Shown in pieces: positions 51,470 through 55,131 of a stretch of 64,000 nt of DNA. The DNA is from Escherichia phage EP75, in sequence record MG748547, one strand, 5' to 3'. A program made the position numbers and the translations under genes. A model generated the notes under the pieces. That model made no database searches. It saw only the letters and a program-made list of their open reading frames with translations, and was not told the origin of the DNA. Position 1 is the stretch's first letter. Every line of letters begins with the position of its first letter.

Positions 51470-51483
51470 CAGACAAAAAGAAA

Positions 51484-51502
51484 CCCGATCATCCTGATCG
51501 GG
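51484..51502 (-). terminator. Strong intrinsic terminator closing the tRNA/structured-RNA locus
   Basis: Minus strand CCCGATCA-GGA-TGATCGGG followed by TTTCTTTTT. Confidence 0.75.
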
Positions 51503-51574
51503 CTATGTTAAACCATCGTGGGGATGGAAAGACTACTCACAGCAATTTCTGATAATGGGCGTTGGGAGAGTGCG

Positions 51575-51591
51575 TCGGGAATCGAACCCGA
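51575..51591 (-). ncRNA. Isolated canonical T-arm (element A); closing helix not found
   Basis: Minus strand TCGGG-TTCGATT-CCCGA. No acceptor partner for GAGTGCG within 100 nt. Confidence 0.25.
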
Positions 51592-51757
51592 AATCGTCAG
51601 GACGCTGAAAGCTATTTGCATTTCACTTGCATATCCTGCGACTTTCTTAACTTCCTTAACCCCAGATTGTTATGAAGTCGGCATGCACACCTTCTTCATC
51701 TTCAGGAAGTCACACTCATAATTTGATTTGCGATGATGAACCCATTTCATCTGGGGT

Positions 51758-51819
51758 TGGGTGAGTGGGAGTTGAACCCACAACGCTTGGCTCGCTTTCC
51801 CTACCATTCAGGCCACCCA
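51758..51819 (-). ncRNA. Truncated tRNA-like element B (62 nt)
   Basis: Minus strand TGGGTGG-(31 nt)-GTGGG-TTCAACT-CCCAC-TCACCCA. 7-bp acceptor including a G-U. Interior too short for D plus anticodon arms. Confidence 0.3.
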
Positions 51820-51917
51820 ATTCCAGGAGGTAGAGCACCTTTGCCGTCGGTGCCCATATGCCAGTCTTCCGCCCTGGCCTCCACTCGCGTCTGGGATTTC
51901 CGCGATGATCGCAAATT

Positions 51918-52001
51918 TGGTGTGAGTGGATGGATTTGAACCACCGCGCTGTTACGGGGAGATTTACAGTCTCCTGCATTCGACCGCTCTGCCACACTCA
52001 C
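51918..52001 (-). tRNA. tRNA-Tyr (anticodon GTA), type II
   Basis: Acceptor GTGAGTG/CACTCAC, D stem GCA/TGC, anticodon arm GGAGA-CTGTAAA-TCTCC, 12-nt variable arm, T arm GGTGG-TTCAAAT-CCATC, encoded A-CCA. Confidence 0.85.
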
Positions 52002-52007
52002 ATTTAG

Positions 52008-52079
52008 TCTACCGCCGCGTGCTGGGCCACGCTTGAGGACATCGGCCATCCTTCCTCAGCTAATCCACGCGGCGGTAGA
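52008..52079. repeat. Inverted repeat, 14-bp perfect stem
   Basis: TCTACCGCCGCGTG (52008-52021) pairs with CACGCGGCGGTAGA (52066-52079). Inner TGAGGA/TCCTCA pair. Confidence 0.8.
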
Positions 52080-52085
52080 TTTGGA

Positions 52086-52144
52086 TCAGAGTGTACGGTG
52101 TAGCATTCCGCAGGGGTGCACCTACTGTAGCCCTTCCACTCTGA
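52086..52144. repeat. Inverted repeat, 8-bp stem
   Basis: TCAGAGTG (52086-52093) pairs with CACTCTGA (52137-52144). Confidence 0.7.
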
Positions 52145-52396
52145 AATTGGTGGGTGTTACTTCCGTCGGGTTCAGATTCCGTTCGGCTATTGGACTTCGC
52201 TTCAAGAGCTTGTCGTTCGCGTACTTCGTGCTTACTTGCTTTCGTTCACACCCATTGTTTGTCGTCGGGTGGGGGATTCAAACCCCAATCTTTAGTTTGC
52301 GTTTCTTCAAAGCTATCATATGTTCACTTTGAATAATAAACTCCCCTGGACATCATAACAGGATCTCTATTTCATCCTGCAAGACCCGACATAATA

Positions 52397-52472
52397 TGGC
52401 GACGATGACAGGACTTGAACCTGCGACATATGGATTAACAGTCCACCGTTCTACCGACTGAACTACATCGTC
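52397..52472 (-). tRNA. tRNA-Asn (anticodon GTT)
   Basis: Acceptor GACGATG/CATCGTC, D GTTC/GAAC, anticodon arm GTGGA-CTGTTAA-TCCAT, T arm GCAGG-TTCAAGT-CCTGT, encoded G-CCA. 76 nt. Confidence 0.9.
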
Positions 52473-52633
52473 AAATTTTGTGAAGACCAAACGCCGGATC
52501 GTAACGGTCGTATGTCTTCGGGTGGCTGTCGTTCTTGATGCTTACCATGCGCAGATCATAAGACTGATTCTGCAGGACATACACCAACCACAGCTGTTTT
52601 ATAAATTCCATCATAAAGATACCTCACCAAATT

Positions 52634-52641
52634 TTATTGAA
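52634..52641 (-). promoter_or_regulatory. Internal TTCAATAA box between tRNA-CAT and tRNA-Asn
   Basis: Minus strand TTCAATAA-N12-TATCTT. Weak -10. Confidence 0.3.
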
Positions 52642-52657
52642 CAACTGGTTTATTTAG

Positions 52658-52733
52658 TGGTGACCCTGGCTGGACTTGAACCAGCGACCAATCGATTATG
52701 AGTCGACTGCTCTAACCACTGAGCTACGGGGCC
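52658..52733 (-). tRNA. tRNA with CAT anticodon (elongator Met or Ile2)
   Basis: Acceptor GGCCCCG/CAGGGTC (one C-A, one G-U), D GCTC/GAGC, anticodon arm GTCGA-CTCATAA-TCGAT, T arm GCTGG-TTCAAGT-CCAGC, encoded A-CCA. 76 nt. Confidence 0.85.
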
Positions 52734-53135
52734 AAAATTGGCGGGGTCTGAGGCTTTTCACCTCACCTGCTGGATTGGCCTCCAGCTGTTCTCTCTGGGG
52801 ACTCGCTGTCCGGACAGCTATCCCTTAAACTATCGCCCCATATTCAATTGCACCAGAGCATAATTACCGCTATACGACCACCCTCTCGGGCAGGTTGGTT
52901 CTGACCCAACGTCTCTCTGATGCGTTTTATTGTGTGCCCAATCAAGGACTGTCAACCTTTTATCCCGTTTGTGCATGATCAGTTCATGCATGCCTCTTGT
53001 GCGCCTCACGGCAACGCGCTTCTGTAGGTCATCGACTTGCACTGTAGTCTCACCACAGGCGTTTATTTTTCCAGGGCTTTCCACTTACAAGTCTTAACCA
53101 GATCGGGATACGGGCTTGTAAGATCGGATTGGACA

Positions 53136-53213
53136 CAACTTTGATGGCTCTAGGACTAAAGATCCCGCGTCACCCATAGACTTGGTTTATAAAATCTAGA
53201 GCCATCAAAGTTG
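53136..53213. repeat. Inverted repeat, 17-18-bp perfect stem
   Basis: CAACTTTGATGGCTCTA (53136-53152) pairs with TAGAGCCATCAAAGTTG (53197-53213). Confidence 0.85.
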
Positions 53214-53593: not shown

Positions 53594-53729
53594 GCGCAAA
53601 TCGAAGTTCTCTGGGCTTAACAGGTTCGACCCAACATGTTGTATATCGCCTAACTTGCTCATGGGACGGACACATCTGTGTACAGACCTTGAGGGTTAAA
53701 AGATATACCCAGAGAACTTCGATTTGCGT
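53594..53729. repeat. Inverted repeat, 21-bp perfect stem with about 92-nt loop
   Basis: CGCAAATCGAAGTTCTCTGGG (53595-53615) pairs with CCCAGAGAACTTCGATTTGCG (53708-53728). Confidence 0.85.
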
Positions 53730-53771
53730 AGCCCTTCACTTGCCAAAGATCAGGGCTAATAACAAGACTTC

Positions 53772-53867
53772 GCTCACATCTTTGAGGACACTGCGCGGGA
53801 CTCGAACCCGCCATGAACATCTGGCGCCAAATGCTTCCACCTGTCAATGTCCTCAAAGATGTGGAGC
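53772..53867 (-). ncRNA. Long hairpin enclosing a T-arm (element E)
   Basis: 16-bp perfect stem 53775-53790/53848-53863 plus a bulge and 3 bp. Interior contains GCGGG-TTCGAGT-CCCGC. Confidence 0.35.
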
Positions 53868-53986
53868 CGTTTTAGGGAGTCGAACCCAAATGATTGGCCA
53901 GCGCTGACCTCACATCCCATCTGACTTAGGCAACCCACCTCTGCTACTCAGGAGCTTATCCCCTTTGGACAGTCAGATATAACGGC
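53866..53986 (-). ncRNA. T-arm-bearing structured element F
   Basis: T arm TTGGG-TTCGACT-CCCTA (one mismatch). 6-bp closure GCCGTT/AACGGC. Internal 8-bp helix 53919-53926/53971-53978. Confidence 0.25.
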
Positions 53987-53988
53987 TT

Positions 53989-54057
53989 TGGGATTGGAGG
54001 AAGGACTCGAACCTTCTCATGTACGCTCCTGATTTCTCAGAAGTAGCCTGCTCCCAT
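53989..54057 (-). ncRNA. Minimal tRNA-like element G with encoded CCA
   Basis: ATGGGAG-CAGGCTA-[CTTCTGA-GAAA-TCAGGAG]-CGTACATGA-GAAGG-TTCGAGT-CCTTC-CTCCAAT-C-CCA. A GAAA-tetraloop hairpin replaces the D and anticodon arms. Confidence 0.35.
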
Positions 54058-54275
54058 CGACCTATTAAGTACACGCTCCGCTCATTGTTCGGCGGGAGCT
54101 TATTAATCACACCCTCCCACCTATTGTTAGTGCGCCGAATTTTGTTATGAGGAATCGGAAGACCTCACTGACTTATAGGCTATTACGCCGCCATCAGAAC
54201 TTCGGAATCATTAGCAGTTATTTGCTTGGTCAGTTTCTAAAAACCCGCAAAGTCACGCACAACGAAAACGAAAAC

Positions 54276-54340
54276 CTGTTTGAGTCCTAAACCTACCTGT
54301 CTTGGTCTCACATCGATATGAGTGGCCAGGACTCAAACAG
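54276..54340. repeat. Inverted repeat, 12-bp perfect stem
   Basis: CTGTTTGAGTCC (54276-54287) pairs with GGACTCAAACAG (54329-54340). Confidence 0.85.
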
Positions 54341-54403
54341 CTTGCCGTTCAGTGAGTTAACTATACTTTGTAACCCGTTATTGATAAAACCTTTTATTTT
54401 GTT

Positions 54404-54469
54404 GGCGAGGGTGCGGAATCGAACCACACTTCTGAGCGCTACCCCGTGTCACCAATGCACCACCTCACC
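54404..54469 (-). ncRNA. Truncated tRNA-like element H (66 nt)
   Basis: GGTGAGG-TG-GTG-CATTGGTGA-CAC-(17 nt unpaired)-TGTGG-TTCGATT-CCGCA-C-CCTCGCC. Acceptor, D-like arm and T arm are present but there is no anticodon stem. Confidence 0.35.
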
Positions 54470-54595
54470 ATCGATTTGCCGGAACTTACGCATCCGGCCT
54501 CGTCCTGTCGGTGTTCTTCTGAATCCGGGAAGATCAGCAGGAACTATGAATCAAGTTAATTCAACCAACAGGAATCCTCTTGTTGCCCTTTGACG

Positions 54596-54632
54596 CAACA
54601 TTATGAACCCTCTATGAAGACTCATAATGTTG
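54596..54632. repeat. Hairpin, 11-bp perfect stem
   Basis: CAACATTATGA (54596-54606) pairs with TCATAATGTTG (54622-54632). Confidence 0.85.
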
Positions 54633-54635
54633 TCG

Positions 54636-54724
54636 GCGTGATGGAGATTAGCGCCCCCGACCTCCCCTTATATGTTGGTGTCGACTTGCCAACAGGGTGC
54701 TCTCTGATTCTGAGCTAATCACGC
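54636..54724 (-). ncRNA. 89-nt cloverleaf-like element I with non-canonical anticodon and T loops
   Basis: Acceptor GCGTGAT/ATCACGC and D arm TA-GCTC-AGAATCAGA-GAGC are canonical. The next arm is CCCT/AGGG plus GTTGG/CCAAC with a 10-nt loop. The last arm is GGAGG/TCTCC with a 13-nt loop. Confidence 0.35.
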
Positions 54725-55002
54725 TACAACAGGGAGTTTCGTTCTCCGACGGTCAAGTGCGTCCACTGACACCAGCGAGGTGGCTATTACGCCTCTATTC
54801 ACACAAGCCCCTGAGACTAGGGGTTAACTGGTTTTGGGCTGCAAACCCGACTCCCACTGTGTTATTTCCCTCATGTTTAATACTTTACCGCAGCCCAGCT
54901 AATTTGAAAAGTCCTCTCCCCTTTGAGCTACACTGCCCACAGCAGTGCGGACGAACCTTCACTCAAAACCGGATGCGCCGAAGTGGGCAACTGTTTACCG
55001 GA

Positions 55003-55044
55003 CTGATCGGGTAGACCCAGGAGAGAGCAGGTAATCCCGATCAG
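55003..55044. repeat. Inverted repeat, 9-bp stem
   Basis: CTGATCGGG (55003-55011) pairs with CCCGATCAG (55036-55044). Confidence 0.75.
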
Positions 55045-55115
55045 GAGGATGAGGAGTAACATCATGTAAAACATAGTGTTCCCTCCCTTCCATGCAACTA
55101 ACTTTACTACAATTA

Positions 55116-55128
55116 TTTATTGAATAAA
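55116..55128 (-). promoter_or_regulatory. Palindromic box heading the tRNA/structured-RNA locus
   Basis: TTTATTGAATAAA lies 4 nt after the stop of 55132..55701. Candidate -10 TAGTAA/TAAAGT lies 8-10 nt downstream on the minus strand. Confidence 0.4.
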
Positions 55129-55131
55129 GCG

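Follow-up and report, generated by a model that had tools for sequence, protein, structure and literature searches.

In the T4 tRNA cluster, processing of a precursor yields the tRNAs plus the species 1 and 2 RNAs. T4 rnaC combines a closing stem with a T-arm, a layout that recurs in several modules of the locus described here. The large phage or prophage RNAs GOLLD and ROOL are situated near tRNA islands, and GOLLD env-38 was found downstream of a Met-tRNA (PMC12286853). The window analyzed here is a stretch of 64,000 nucleotides from Escherichia phage EP75, an Ackermannviridae (Kuttervirus) phage of Salmonella/E. coli; its minus strand very probably carries, between promoter box and terminator, an array of about 25 independently folding, co-oriented RNA modules. 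The original prediction of a structured-RNA locus enlarging on the T4-type stable RNAs is upheld, in that the block is non-coding, selected and covarying, and shares the rnaC layout.

Coding status, conservation and transcription signals

51482-55123, minus strand: RNA island, from promoter box to terminator
55101-55123, minus strand: putative promoter P1, TCAATAA-N10-TAAAGT, overlapping the palindromic box 55116-55128
54360-54387, minus strand: predicted promoter P2, TTATCA-N16-TATAGT, immediately preceding hairpin E and the tmRNA-like core
51482-51504, minus strand: intrinsic terminator closing the locus, 10-bp stem with 5 G-C pairs, then TCTTTTTGTC (T run)

The block 51482-55123 is non-coding, whereas the genes on both sides carry a coding signature. 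As predicted for some 3.6 kb, no ORF within 51473-55130 exceeds 114 aa in the ORF list, and substitutions relative to Agtrevirus and Taipeivirus relatives displayed no codon periodicity at any 150-nt step from 55160 to 51486, while the same test gave p values of 1e-4 to 5e-15 for the flanking CDSs 55132-55701 and 51201-51434. A gap of 1.3-3.0 kb without annotation occupies the same position in Kuttervirus, Agtrevirus, Taipeivirus, Limestonevirus, Miltonvirus and Nezavisimistyvirus, and the island is retained in six Ackermannviridae genera. Cross-genus comparison revealed 75-97% nucleotide identity in some blocks versus 37-42% for the neighboring (anchor) protein; parts of the block are better conserved than the flanking genes, and the block is under strong purifying selection. 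Alignment of relatives, as proposed at the outset, uncovered well over 100 base pairs with compensatory changes locus-wide. Presence/absence comparison showed that modules come and go between close relatives.

The predicted sharing of the palindromic 13-mer TTTATTGAATAAA by 55116-55128 and 46271-46283 is exact at both sites; with up to one mismatch, the box has 8 matches in the window against 0.11 expected. The pattern TCAATAA-N10-13-TAWAGT matches twice in the window (P1 and P2, both in the island) against 0.03 expected, and the box at 55116-55128 is probably the -35 end in a class of promoters confined, within the window, to the island. The bin 55131-55072 is 90-100% conserved in 9 of 10 aligned relatives (66% in LIMEstone1). 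Promoter P2 is equivalently placed in Serratia 2050H1 and Erwinia phiEa2809, whereas Bas81 and FelixO1 have TTGACA-type promoters at this position. The closing terminator, expected at about 51484-51502, was located at 51504-51482, and a terminator is annotated at the matching position in KWBSE43-6. The minus strand, originally proposed as the RNA from G-U pairs, is supported as such by invariant G-U pairs, by the way the promoters and terminator point, and by folding energy (-42.3 versus -38.9 kcal/mol per 150 nt); for module K, consensus energy is slightly better on the antisense strand.

tRNAs, tRNA-like elements and stem-closed modules

51918-52001, minus strand: tRNA-Tyr (GUA), ARAGORN and Rfam, 57.3 bits
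52397-52472, minus strand: tRNA-Asn (GUU), ARAGORN and Rfam, 75.2 bits
52658-52733, minus strand: tRNA-Met (CAU), ARAGORN and Rfam, 68.4 bits
52734-52928, minus strand: variable spacer preceding tRNA-Met, with an HNH endonuclease or other sequence instead in relatives
54398-54475, minus strand: module D, tRNA-like, 7-bp acceptor-like stem and T-arm without anticodon arm, exact T-loop motif 54415-54425
53985-54062, minus strand: module F, accessory, tRNA-like, T-arm, acceptor-like stem and encoded CCA, T-loop 54003-54013
53862-53990, minus strand: module G, accessory, 121-nt expanded cloverleaf-like RNA, T-arm and encoded CCA, T-loop 53876-53886
53768-53870, minus strand: module H, accessory, 19-22-bp closing stem around a hairpin and T-arm, T-loop 53798-53808
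52250-52396, minus strand: tRNA-like element, T-arm (GGUUUGAAUCC), T-loop 52274-52284; 33 pairs, 1 compensated
51740-51916, minus strand: tRNA-like element with upstream hairpins, T-loop 51768-51778; 47 pairs, 9 compensated
51540-51680, minus strand: tRNA-like element, T-arm, T-loop 51578-51588; 25 pairs, 10 compensated over 10 unique sequences

ARAGORN and Rfam agree on exactly three tRNAs, all on the minus strand and totaling 236 nt, in line with the roughly 235 nt of canonical tRNA first estimated. T-loop motifs number ten on the minus strand, nine of them exact and the tenth with one mismatch; all fall within 51578-54425, and no exact copy was found elsewhere in the 64 kb. Besides the three tRNAs, the island contains seven tRNA-like RNAs that possess a T-arm and lack an anticodon arm; none of the seven matches any of the 107 tRNAs called in 29 related loci. 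Module D occurs in 15 loci and is poorly conserved in Taipeivirus, module F occurs in 10 loci only and has a weak tRNA-Sec match (17.4 bits, Rfam), and module H, found in 7 loci, forms 35 pairs that are intact in all 140 cells. Aligned copies of module G, which is missing from Det7 and Gloob, are near-identical, including in Taipeivirus, with flanks about 75% identical. Because F, G and H are accessory and nearly invariant, support for their structures comes from energy and motif. The spacer before tRNA-Met is full-length in only three relatives, giving three unique sequences including the window.

54928-55074, minus strand: candidate 48-aa membrane mini-protein, CBA120 orf219 homologue, containing hairpin 55003-55044
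54885-54980, minus strand: module A, multi-helix RNA; 29 pairs, 6 compensated, 1 broken cell
54731-54884, minus strand: structured segment between A and B; 32 pairs, 6 compensated, 7 of 416 cells non-canonical
54630-54730, minus strand: module B; 29 pairs, 6 compensated
54592-54636, minus strand: module C, 17-bp hairpin; 19 pairs, 0 of 171 cells broken
54476-54591, minus strand: conserved segment, putative structure; 24 pairs, 1 of 336 cells non-canonical
53590-53732, minus strand: module I, 21-bp perfect closing stem with internal hairpins; 27 pairs, 5 compensated
53589-53400, minus strand: dense structured segment, covarying; 47 pairs, 15 compensated
53399-53226, minus strand: dense structured segment, covarying; 52 pairs, 13 compensated
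53124-53225, minus strand: module J, long hairpin with 26-nt arms; 22 pairs, 7 compensated
52929-53131, minus strand: module K, 200-nt multi-helix RNA; 44 pairs, 10 compensated
52082-52148, minus strand: module L, hairpin common to T5-like and N4-like phages; 15 pairs, 2 compensated
52004-52083, minus strand: module M, 14-bp covarying stem with invariant 45-nt loop, common to N4-like phages; 24 pairs, 11 compensated, including a KP8 copy with the stem wholly rewritten

Modules K, M, A, I and J are stem-closed RNAs with invariant loops (the hairpin loop of J varies freely). Twelve helices had been listed in the original prediction, and seven of them beat all 200 dinucleotide shuffles: 52008-52079 (module M, z = -4.2), 53136-53213 (J, -6.8), 53594-53729 (I, -9.3), 53772-53867 (H, -6.9), 54276-54340 (E, -5.9), 54596-54632 (C, -6.6) and 55003-55044 (-4.0). 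The other five were not significant on energy alone; two of these (54636-54724 and 52086-52144) are backed by compensatory changes, and three (53866-53986, 53989-54057 and 54404-54469) belong to the tRNA-like elements and carry canonical T-arms. Module A contains many invariant G-U pairs, and its consensus folding energy is -23.0 sense versus -8.6 antisense. Module B is partly retained in Serratia 2050H1 and Erwinia phiEa2809, and variation in module C consists of A-U/G-U switches only. The segment 54476-54591 has a minimum pairwise identity of 83% over 14 unique sequences, among which no compensatory change occurs, so its structure is not proven. A 37-nt core at 53296-53261 is 97% identical with Erwinia phiEa2809. 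Module K has the widest conservation among the Ackermannviridae-specific modules, with 272 phage records that are almost all Ackermannviridae-type; its Miltonvirus copy is 80% identical, and no Rfam match to K was obtained at E up to 10. Copies of module L with 83-88% identity lie within Epseptimavirus tRNA clusters and in UTK0001, and L, M and the tmRNA-like core reside in tRNA clusters of T5-, N4-, T1- and FelixO1-like phages, on the same strand as the tRNAs. The original prediction had included neither these modules common to unrelated phage families nor the seven T-arm modules and the tmRNA-like module.

A tmRNA-like core

54091-54276, minus strand: tmRNA-like core, from alignments, covariation and a sub-threshold Rfam match
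54276-54268, minus strand: 5' motif of the core
54215-54213, minus strand: resume codon GCU
54215-54186, minus strand: tag frame ANDSEVLMAA, 10 codons
54185-54180, minus strand: two stop codons, in the loop of the helix-5-like hairpin
54197-54168, minus strand: helix-5-like hairpin
54167-54135, minus strand: pseudoknot a, covarying
54134-54091, minus strand: pseudoknot b, covarying
54262-54352, minus strand: module E, hairpin with 22-bp arms, the 3' arm carrying an invariant GGUUUUCGU motif; 27 pairs, 4 compensated

Judged by comparison of related sequences, the core at 54276-54091 is a tmRNA-derived, previously unannotated RNA comprising a start-less tag frame, a helix-5-like hairpin and two pseudoknots. 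In the structure test, 96.2% of cells were paired versus 32-45% with the partners slid; 12 of 30 pairs had changed on both sides, and none of 500 shuffles reached the real score. The Rfam tmRNA_permuted model scored 21.5-33.5 bits at the core or its orthologous site in four lineages (gathering score 47), the beta_tmRNA model likewise gave sub-threshold matches at the orthologous site, and ARAGORN called no tmRNA in the island. The core matches 659 phage records, from T1-like, FelixO1-like and N4-like phages, lambdoid prophages and phage-plasmids. Inspection of the sequence revealed no in-frame start codon for the tag, which reads ANDDVVLMAA, ANDNTFLAVA, ANDNVFLAVA or ANEEMYLAVA in relatives and ANDENYALAA in E. 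coli; the resume codon is preceded by AAAAAUAAUC in CBA120 (GCU), compared with AAAAAAUAGUC in E. coli ssrA (GCA). Position 3 varies in all 10 tag codons, position 1 in 5 and position 2 in 6, and codons 1, 2 and 10 show synonymous changes only. This phasing implies that the tag evolves like a translated peptide, which favors an alternative tag template. Canonical trans-translation cannot be claimed, because the core has no consistent link to a tRNA-like domain, tmRNA P2 helix or alanine-identity acceptor; module E is aligned by tmRNA_permuted to the tRNA-domain stems, yet lacks T-loop, acceptor and CCA. A PK1 equivalent is likewise unproven, since the helix just 5' of the resume codon is A/U-rich and slips in register between lineages.

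Alternative explanations and proposed role

The original prediction had also considered a decaying tRNA array, with the non-tRNA sequence being pseudogenised tRNAs in neutral drift. Seven T-arm motifs beyond the called tRNAs, extra tRNAs (Ser, Ile, Gln, Trp) and one annotated pseudo-tRNA in relatives, and tRNA content that differs among genomes are compatible with it. However, the extra elements have no orthologous intact tRNA among the 107 called in relatives, 51740-51916 and 51540-51680 carry their own compensated pairs, and tRNA likeness is absent from the greater part of the block (A, B, E, the core, I, J, K, M and 53226-53589); these modules outdo the flanking protein genes in conservation and abound in compensatory changes, leaving decay extremely improbable. 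It is very improbable that the block merely looks ORF-poor and that the small CDSs of relatives (CBA120 orf219, 223 and 224; Det7 199 and 200; many hypothetical proteins) represent true genes, as the annotated ORFs vary by genome and use both strands, their sequences double as covarying helices, and codon periodicity is confined to the flanking genes. The ORF at 54928-55074 keeps its ATG, frame and hydrophobic N-terminus across genera, has a 3-nt indel and matches a PHROG family of its own (phrog_8415), but codon periodicity is absent from it and module A, which covaries, overlaps its 3' end; a genuine mini-protein here is possible, if somewhat doubtful.

One or a few giant structured RNAs, a third class beside GOLLD and ROOL that possibly forms higher-order assemblies, would find a candidate in the stretch 53732-52929, about 0.8 kb long and comprising I, 53226-53589, J and K, which is contiguous, densely paired, kept together across most genera and, like those RNAs, close to tRNAs, lying just upstream of tRNA-Met; in Miltonvirus, K immediately precedes tRNA-Met. 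This reading is nevertheless unlikely: Rfam detected neither GOLLD nor ROOL in the whole locus at E up to 10, or on closer search of 53950-54500 and 52900-53160, every module has a terminal stem of its own, modules appear and disappear independently of one another and some stand alone in other phage families, and a non-exhaustive search found no long-range covarying helices joining modules. Least probable of all is a DNA-level element (replication origin, packaging site or recombination hotspot) with hairpins acting as cruciforms or in single-stranded DNA. Long perfect inverted repeats, homing endonucleases inserted in relatives and fast module turnover would suit such an element, but on the opposite strand the invariant G-U pairs become C-A mismatches, compensatory changes occur in pseudoknots, the tag frame is codon-phased, and tRNAs and T-arms share one strand framed by promoters and terminator.

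For the array of RNA modules, the two locus-specific sigma-70-type promoters (55123-55101 and 54384-54360) would drive host RNA polymerase to the terminator at 51504-51482. Host RNase P, Z and E would cut the precursor at tRNA and tRNA-like units, with RNase III possibly cutting the 17-27-bp stems, to give small stable RNAs. The tRNAs may supplement or replace host tRNAs, and the anticodon-less tRNA mimics may compete for enzymes that bind tRNAs or for defence nucleases. The tmRNA-like RNA would engage the host trans-translation (SmpB-tmRNA) system; as a second choice it may titrate or inhibit host tmRNA-SmpB, while the favored reading is that it serves as an alternative tag template, with ...LMAA or ...LAVA replacing the host ...ALAA, which would need a tRNA-like partner in trans or one not yet recognized. 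The island most likely alters host translation and ribosome rescue during infection.

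A conserved non-coding block of structured RNA

The RNA island (51482-55123, minus strand) is flanked on one side by a tail-needle-knob gene cluster (50676-51191, PF16532; 51201-51434) and on the other by a conserved 189-aa gene with no assigned function (55132-55701, phrog_3788), beyond which lies a divergent baseplate-wedge gene. Consistent with the original prediction of an ORF-free block, the longest ORF within it does not exceed 114 aa. A Megablast search with 51400-55200 matched 320 phage records, nearly all of them from Ackermannviridae, with Salmonella phage Se-J (Kuttervirus) as the best match (97.6% identity). 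An unannotated gap of 1.3-3.0 kb was found at the same position in Kuttervirus, Agtrevirus, Taipeivirus, Limestonevirus, Miltonvirus (Serratia 2050H1) and Nezavisimistyvirus (Erwinia phiEa2809). When the window was aligned to Agtrevirus and Taipeivirus relatives and mismatches were counted by phase in 150-nt windows, third-position periodicity was strong in both flanking genes (p 1e-4 to 5e-15) and absent throughout 55160-51486. Therefore, the small CDSs annotated in this stretch in CBA120, Det7, KWBSE43-6 and other phages lack coding support.

Distant relatives were located by tblastn searches of a phage collection with the 189-aa protein, which shows only 42% identity in Serratia 2050H1 and 37% in Erwinia phiEa2809. 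The following parts of the block are conserved in these phages.

Non-coding blocks in the Miltonvirus/Nezavisimistyvirus comparison (minus strand)
53131-52929: 80% nucleotide identity over 204 nt
54282-54183: 75% nucleotide identity
54413-54334: 76% nucleotide identity
53296-53261: 97% nucleotide identity over 37 nt

Mismatch density in the 5' kilobase of the block is below that of the flanking genes, and in the rest of the block whole modules of 100-360 nt are gained or missing among relatives. The block is non-coding yet under selection.

The structured segments of the island, designated modules A-M, were analyzed one by one: orthologues were collected from up to 34 loci, duplicates were dropped, and the remaining sequences were aligned and the alignment folded.

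Base pairs and compensated pairs in modules and segments of the island (minus strand)
52929-53131: module K, 44 pairs, 10 compensated
52004-52083: module M, 24 pairs, 11 compensated
54885-54980: module A, 29 pairs, 6 compensated, many invariant G-U pairs
54262-54352: module E (hairpin E), 27 pairs, 4 compensated
Module J: 22 pairs, 7 compensated
Module B: 29 pairs, 6 compensated
Module I: 27 pairs, 5 compensated
53589-53400: segment, 47 pairs, 15 compensated
53399-53226: segment, 52 pairs, 13 compensated
54885-54731: segment, 32 pairs, 6 compensated
51916-51740: segment, 47 pairs, 9 compensated
51680-51540: segment, 25 pairs, 10 compensated

Summed over the modules, well over 100 pairs carry compensatory changes, against the free drift without covariation that the original prediction had named as its counter-case. 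In the N4-like phage KP8, the 14-bp stem of module M is wholly rewritten around an identical 45-nt loop. Seven of the 12 helices originally predicted outdid all 200 dinucleotide shuffles (z -4.0 to -9.3), and the inverted repeats underlying the helices have arms of up to 26 nt (26, 22, 21, 19 and 14 nt). The proposed minus-strand orientation of the RNA is borne out as well, because the invariant G-U pairs would read as C-A mismatches on the opposite strand. Modules A and M fold far better in the sense orientation, and the mean folding energy per 150 nt is -42.3 kcal/mol for the minus strand and -38.9 for the plus strand, compared with -31 to -35 for the flanking coding DNA. The RNA structure of the block is under selection.

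Several further features of the block were observed. A 48-aa ORF at its 5' edge (54928-55074, minus strand; MFYMMLLLILLIGITCSLLGLPDQ...) has a good Shine-Dalgarno sequence. Across Kuttervirus to Taipeivirus it keeps its start, frame and hydrophobic N-terminus, and an indel of 3 nt is seen; codon periodicity is absent, and the covarying module A overlaps the 3' end of the ORF. That it encodes a real mini-protein has somewhat less than an even chance; the product may be a membrane mini-protein or a leader peptide heading the island. The motif C(C/A)GACGAACAAUGAG(C/A)GG follows directly after a stem-loop twice (54096-54078 and 53469-53451, minus strand), and the related CCAAUGAGAG comes after pseudoknot b in T1-like phages; the motif may be a processing or tertiary-contact signal. 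Module K had no Rfam match of any kind (52900-53160, E up to 10). A relation of this module to a minimal RNase P-like RNA was rejected, as no RNase P covariance model matched, and its resemblance in GGAAAGCCC and ACAGAAG is coincidental.

The palindromic 13-mer TTTATTGAATAAA, said to open the block, is present exactly at 55116-55128 and 46271-46283, and with one mismatch allowed it occurs eight times in the window (0.11 expected). By consensus match, the box supplies the -35 end of the TCAATAA-N10-13-TAWAGT class of promoters, which has exactly two members in the window (0.03 expected), both on the minus strand and within the locus.

Predicted promoters and terminator of the island
55123-55101, minus strand: promoter P1
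54384-54360, minus strand: promoter P2
51504-51482: terminator, 10-bp stem followed by a T run

P2 is kept in Serratia 2050H1 (TTGTCAATAA...GTATAGTT) and in Erwinia phiEa2809, and canonical TTGACA promoters occupy its place in T1-like Bas81 and in FelixO1. Judging from the consensus match, both sites are probably active promoters. The other sites of the box at no more than one mismatch (19661, 30387, 42354, 46271 and 55755, e.g., 55755-55767 on the plus strand, upstream of the baseplate-wedge gene) have no TAWAGT -10 at the spacing of the island promoters, so the box alone does not define the class. The terminator proposed to close the block was also recovered.

tRNAs, tRNA-like modules and rival readings of the block

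ARAGORN and Rfam agreed on exactly three tRNAs, as originally predicted, and only these have the full cloverleaf with an anticodon arm that is recognized by ARAGORN or Rfam RF00005. Ten minus-strand copies of the T-loop motif GGTTCRANTCC lie within 51578-54425 (nine exact, one with a single mismatch), with no exact copy elsewhere in the 64 kb. Three copies lie in the tRNAs and seven in tRNA-like modules, which have acceptor-like closing stems and T-arms without a normal anticodon arm.

tRNAs and tRNA-like modules
51918-52001, minus strand: tRNA-Tyr
52397-52472, minus strand: tRNA-Asn
52658-52733, minus strand: tRNA-Met
54398-54475, minus strand: tRNA-like module D, T-loop
53985-54062, minus strand: tRNA-like module F, T-loop, encoded 3' CCA
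53862-53990, minus strand: tRNA-like module G, T-loop, encoded 3' CCA
53768-53870, minus strand: tRNA-like module H, T-loop
52250-52396, minus strand: tRNA-like module, T-loop
51740-51916, minus strand: tRNA-like module, T-loop
51540-51680, minus strand: tRNA-like module, T-loop

The extra T-arm elements were recovered only at ARAGORN -ps80 or as tRNA-Sec matches of about 17 bits or less. None of the seven modules matched any of the 107 tRNAs called by ARAGORN in 29 related loci, and both T-arm elements downstream of tRNA-Tyr covary.

Four other explanations of the block were weighed. A decaying tRNA array, put forward originally as the alternative to an RNA locus, was rejected: its T-arm elements have no orthology to intact tRNAs, some of them covary, and the bulk of the block is not tRNA-like, which makes decay scarcely credible. 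A set of hidden small proteins is very improbable given the missing codon periodicity, and a DNA-level element is barely conceivable for a locus with G-U pairs, pseudoknots and a tag frame. One or a few giant RNAs of the GOLLD or ROOL kind, an idea that is most plausible for 53732-52929, would be the explanation with the best standing among these, though quite improbable in view of the self-closed, independent modules and the lack of any Rfam match.

Module exchange is also visible. Module G (121 nt) is near-identical in every aligned copy, including that of Taipeivirus, with flanks of only ~75% identity, and it is absent from Det7 and Gloob; this pattern suggests that RNA modules have recently moved horizontally one by one. 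An HNH homing endonuclease gene adjoins tRNA-Met and overlaps its annotated end in CBA120 (L001 3265-3678) and KpS110 (L009 2819-3232), and is missing from the window, where the corresponding stretch is ~52734-52928. Gene conversion driven by such an endonuclease could explain the module-by-module mosaicism.

A tmRNA-like core

The core (54091-54276, minus strand) contains a tag frame at 54215-54180, GCU AAU GAU UCC GAA GUU CUG AUG GCG GCG UAA UAG, which reads ANDSEVLMAA followed by two stops. The frame has no start: reading upstream in frame, neither ATG, GTG nor TTG occurs before a UAG stop eight codons away. The core therefore shows the start-less tag that characterizes tmRNA, with an Ala resume codon, a hydrophobic ...AA end and stops. 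Upstream of the resume codon, AAAAAUAAUC|GCU in CBA120 resembles AAAAAAUAGUC|GCA of E. coli tmRNA. A set of 126 copies comprised 21 distinct nucleotide sequences and 13 peptide variants, all of 10 aa, with the consensus A-N-(D/E)-x-x-(F/Y/V)-L-(A/M/I/V)-(V/A)-A and a single exception, K at position 7. Third codon positions vary in 10 of 10 codons and positions 1 and 2 in only 5 and 6, and codons 1, 2 and 10 show synonymous changes only; by this pattern, the tag appears to behave like a translated peptide.

The structure tested, in a 16-sequence alignment from five phage groups, consisted of a helix-5-like hairpin that takes in the last tag codons and the stops, with two pseudoknots after it. 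In this structure 96.2% of cells were paired, compared with 32-45% when partners were slid by 1-3 columns, and 12 of the 30 pairs were altered on both sides; none of 500 shuffles reached the observed values. As in helix 5 of tmRNA, the stops lie in the loop and the stem is built from the 3' tag codons. The stem occupies alignment columns 35-39/60-64 and 43-45/52-54, with an A-U to G-C switch at 38:61 that splits the sequences 8 to 8, and Erwinia phiEa2809 and KP8 show the further stem variants AAAG/CUUU and CUGAUGG/CCAUUAG. Both pseudoknots downstream of the tag carry compensatory changes. Canonical tmRNA has PK1 upstream and PK2-4 downstream of the mRNA-like region; the helix upstream of the resume codon in the core is A/U-rich and its register slips between lineages, so that a PK1 equivalent is unproven.

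In four lineages, the orthologous element scored below threshold with the Rfam tmRNA_permuted model (window 21.5 bits; Bas81, KP8 and phiEa2809 27-33.5 bits; gathering score 47), and beta_tmRNA gave 7-18 bits (gathering score 84), so neither gathering score was reached. With ARAGORN in tmRNA mode, neither the window nor five cross-family loci gave a call. No P2 helix was found for the core, and acceptor and T-arm scans of 119 loci linked no tRNA-like domain (7-bp acceptor with G3-U70, T-arm, 3' CCA) to it. Hairpin E, which precedes the core in Ackermannviridae, is aligned by Rfam to the tRNA-domain stems of permuted tmRNA, and it contains no T-loop, acceptor or CCA. On sequence evidence, the core probably works like the coding half of a tmRNA, yet it fails the defining test of a tRNA-like domain.

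Candidates for the missing partner were rejected. The 119-locus scan yielded 24 candidates with alanine identity and no consistent one; a 140-nt class among the candidates proved to be ordinary tRNA-Met(CAU) read with a wrong 5' strand. Module D, which lies ~200 nt upstream of the tag as the acceptor piece does in permuted tmRNA genes, is not supported: it has a complete acceptor stem of its own, with U3-G70 or G2-U71, its conservation in Taipeivirus is poor, and P2 separates it from the core. An unannotated 78-nt tRNA-like gene of FelixO1 (L033 2653-2734) carries the alanine identity set (G3-U70, A73, encoded CCA) and a CUUCUAA loop, scores 31.7 bits as an Rfam tRNA, and is kept ~90 nt downstream of the core in 12 FelixO1-like contigs. 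As a partner it was rejected for its anticodon-like UCU loop and its confinement to the FelixO1 lineage. Direct homology of the core to host ssrA was also rejected, as the E. coli blastn matches are prophage and plasmid copies and local alignment to ssrA is not meaningful.

The core is widespread. Distant blastn with 54100-54352 matched 659 phage records, which extend well outside Ackermannviridae. Copies lie on the tRNA strand in or beside the tRNA clusters of N4-like KP8, T1-like Bas81 and FelixO1. A further copy is placed between the Q antiterminator and holin genes of a lambdoid prophage (E. coli 55989). Of 5,426 complete E. coli genomes, 559 had matches, plasmid-borne in most cases; ~110-kb non-mobilizable Klebsiella plasmids matched as well, and the pattern of invariant pseudoknot residues was found in at least 119 viral contigs in size classes of ~46, 68, 72, 87, 110 and 157 kb. 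Pattern matches in Roseateles, Rhodospirillales and other diverse bacteria were discarded as chance, since no tmRNA lies at these sites. The modules assort independently, and some are shared with the tRNA islands of other phages. In KP8, five tRNAs precede a 1.4-kb unannotated stretch (L030 2478-3878) with the core, an M-like module and four additional T-arm elements, of which three have ACCA or ACCT after them; the stretch resembles another RNA island, here in an unrelated family. A module adjoining the core, missing from the window, is shared by FelixO1 (L033 ~2585-2640) and the E. coli 55989 prophage (L034 ~3408-3470); its loop CCCUUAUGGGGCUUGGCUUAAAUGCA is invariant and its closing stems differ (AAAGGGUA/UACCCUUU versus UAAGAGCA/UGCUCUUA).

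The 5' motif of the core, (A/G)GUUUUCGU, is present in 82 of 83 parseable copies. Coliphage-type copies carry UAGUUUUCGU(C), a perfect complement of nt 96-106 of E. coli ssrA, which fall in the tag codons (GAC GAA AAC UA). The complementarity extends over 10-11 nt in these copies and 8 nt in the window (54276-54268); the pairing of TAGTTTTCGT(C) was confirmed with nt 96-106 of the authentic E. coli ssrA, and matches of at least 10 nt arose in 27 of 500 shuffles (5%). In the Ackermannviridae copies, the motif has a cis partner within hairpin E, either AACGAAAAGC or AACGGCAAGC. Pairing in trans with host tmRNA may be considered as a minor hypothesis.

Relation to known RNAs and possible roles

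The core resembles tmRNA, especially its two-piece or permuted form (RF04321, RF01850), in the start-less tag with an Ala resume codon and double stops, the tag pattern A-N-D/E-x-x-aromatic/hydrophobic-L-x-A/V-A, the A-rich AUAAAU or AUAAUC directly upstream of the tag, the stops in the loop of a hairpin built from the last tag codons, and the downstream pseudoknots. However, it has no acceptor G3-U70, T-arm, CCA or P2, and two pseudoknots only, with PK1 unproven; LMAA, LAVA or LAAA closes its tag in place of the canonical ALAA (ANDENYALAA in E. coli), and its nucleotide similarity to E. coli ssrA is negligible outside the tag. Phage tmRNAs are known from mycobacteriophages (cluster C1), Bacillus phage G and marine myophages such as Melnitz, and earlier surveys, based on ARAGORN and Rfam, required tRNA-like segments (PMC4131195, PMC9004378, PMC11915505). 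Like phage tmRNA genes, the core gene lies among phage tRNA genes. Mycobacteriophage DS6A carries a TLD-only partial tmRNA, proposed to titrate SmpB and thereby interfere with host trans-translation (PMC4131195). Both phages carry a partial tmRNA, but that of DS6A is a tRNA-like domain without the coding part, whereas the core is the coding part and pseudoknots without a tRNA-like domain.

T4 species 1 and 2 (rnaC, rnaD), to which the original prediction likened the locus, are small stable RNAs with no assigned function that adjoin the phage tRNA genes and are co-oriented with them, as the island modules are by position. A homing endonuclease (segB) lies in the T4 cluster, as in relatives of the island, and rnaC is built like modules D, F, G and H: its two ends pair in a closing stem, hairpins lie inside, and a canonical T-arm is placed close to the 3' terminus. 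In contrast, blastn and nhmmer found only the T-arm in common (18 nt, E = 0.017), and T4 has two RNAs of ~260 nt in total against ~20 non-tRNA modules over ~3.2 kb in the island. The layout is the same with no sequence in common beyond the T-arm; therefore, the analogy is apt in architecture and not in homology. In rnaC (L167 2409-2547, reverse strand), CUUAAUAACC, preceded by an A-rich stretch and lying just after a hairpin and beside the T-arm, matches exactly the sequence around the E. coli tmRNA stop codons (GCUUAAUAACCUGC); this may be a coincidence or a hint of a relation between rnaC and tmRNA.

The bacterial Y-RNA-like YrlA is a tRNA mimic on a long stem. Module H likewise joins a long closing stem of its 5' and 3' ends to an apical T-arm domain, a likeness of architecture only: no Y-RNA family matched the locus in Rfam (E up to 10), and no Ro or Rsr binding motif was identified in it. 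GOLLD and ROOL are large, ornate, covariation-supported phage and prophage RNAs beside tRNA islands, with no assigned function (PMC12286853). They share with the island only this genomic context; the island is modular, with independently assorting modules, and not one fold of 500-800 nt; neither family matched in Rfam (whole locus, E up to 10; closer scans of 53950-54500 and 52900-53160).

Host RNA polymerase would transcribe the array from P1 and P2, and the precursor would be cut at the tRNA-like units by RNases P, Z and E, with RNase III possibly cutting at stems of 17-27 bp. The products would act on the translation apparatus. For the tmRNA-like RNA, we favor an alternative tag template whose partner is supplied in trans, a proposal only just short of an even chance. 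Titration or inhibition of tmRNA-SmpB comes second as a mechanism and is unlikely, and some other activity is rather unlikely. Taken together, the findings might describe an unrecognized tmRNA-derived class in at least six unrelated enterobacterial phage groups (Ackermannviridae, T1-like, FelixO1-like and N4-like phages, lambdoid prophages and phage-plasmids), which would have kept the tag template, helix 5 and the pseudoknots, shed the tRNA-like domain, and hijack or reprogram host trans-translation. In Ackermannviridae, its surroundings would be a 3.6-kb island with some 20 other structured RNAs, among which K, M and 53226-53589 would represent new RNA families. This joint reading is tentative, a possibility short of probable. 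It could operate through a phage-specific tag (...LMAA or ...LAVA) supplied by means of a partner in trans, or through pairing of the invariant UAGUUUUCGU motif with host tmRNA, antisense to ssrA 96-106.

Phage tmRNAs are a known kind of RNA, and so are the stable structured RNAs of phage tRNA clusters. Three things appear to be undescribed: an array of ~20 non-tRNA modules spanning ~3.2 kb that a whole family conserves; modules K, M and A taken singly; and, most notably, the tmRNA derivative, which is widespread, has no tRNA-like domain and is missed by standard detectors. No earlier account of the locus, or of a tmRNA-like RNA in enterobacterial phages, was found in the literature covered, which left out most subscription journals, so that an earlier description is possible.

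Phage tRNA clusters are usually annotated as tRNAs and "hypothetical proteins". Here, ~2% of the genome in a well-studied family of therapeutic and biocontrol phages is a conserved battery of structured RNAs that is missed, or mis-called as small ORFs, by annotation pipelines. New Rfam families could readily be built from modules K, M and A, and the locus gives a tangible starting point for explaining T4 species 1 and 2 RNAs, a long-standing puzzle. Phage tRNAs are thought to counter tRNA-targeting defenses, and a role in ribosome rescue, if true, would fit the place of the core beside them. The tmRNA-like element, which escapes ARAGORN and Rfam, is the most testable part, and if it works with or against SmpB-tmRNA it would represent a new phage control of ribosome rescue and of the proteolytic tagging of stalled proteins.
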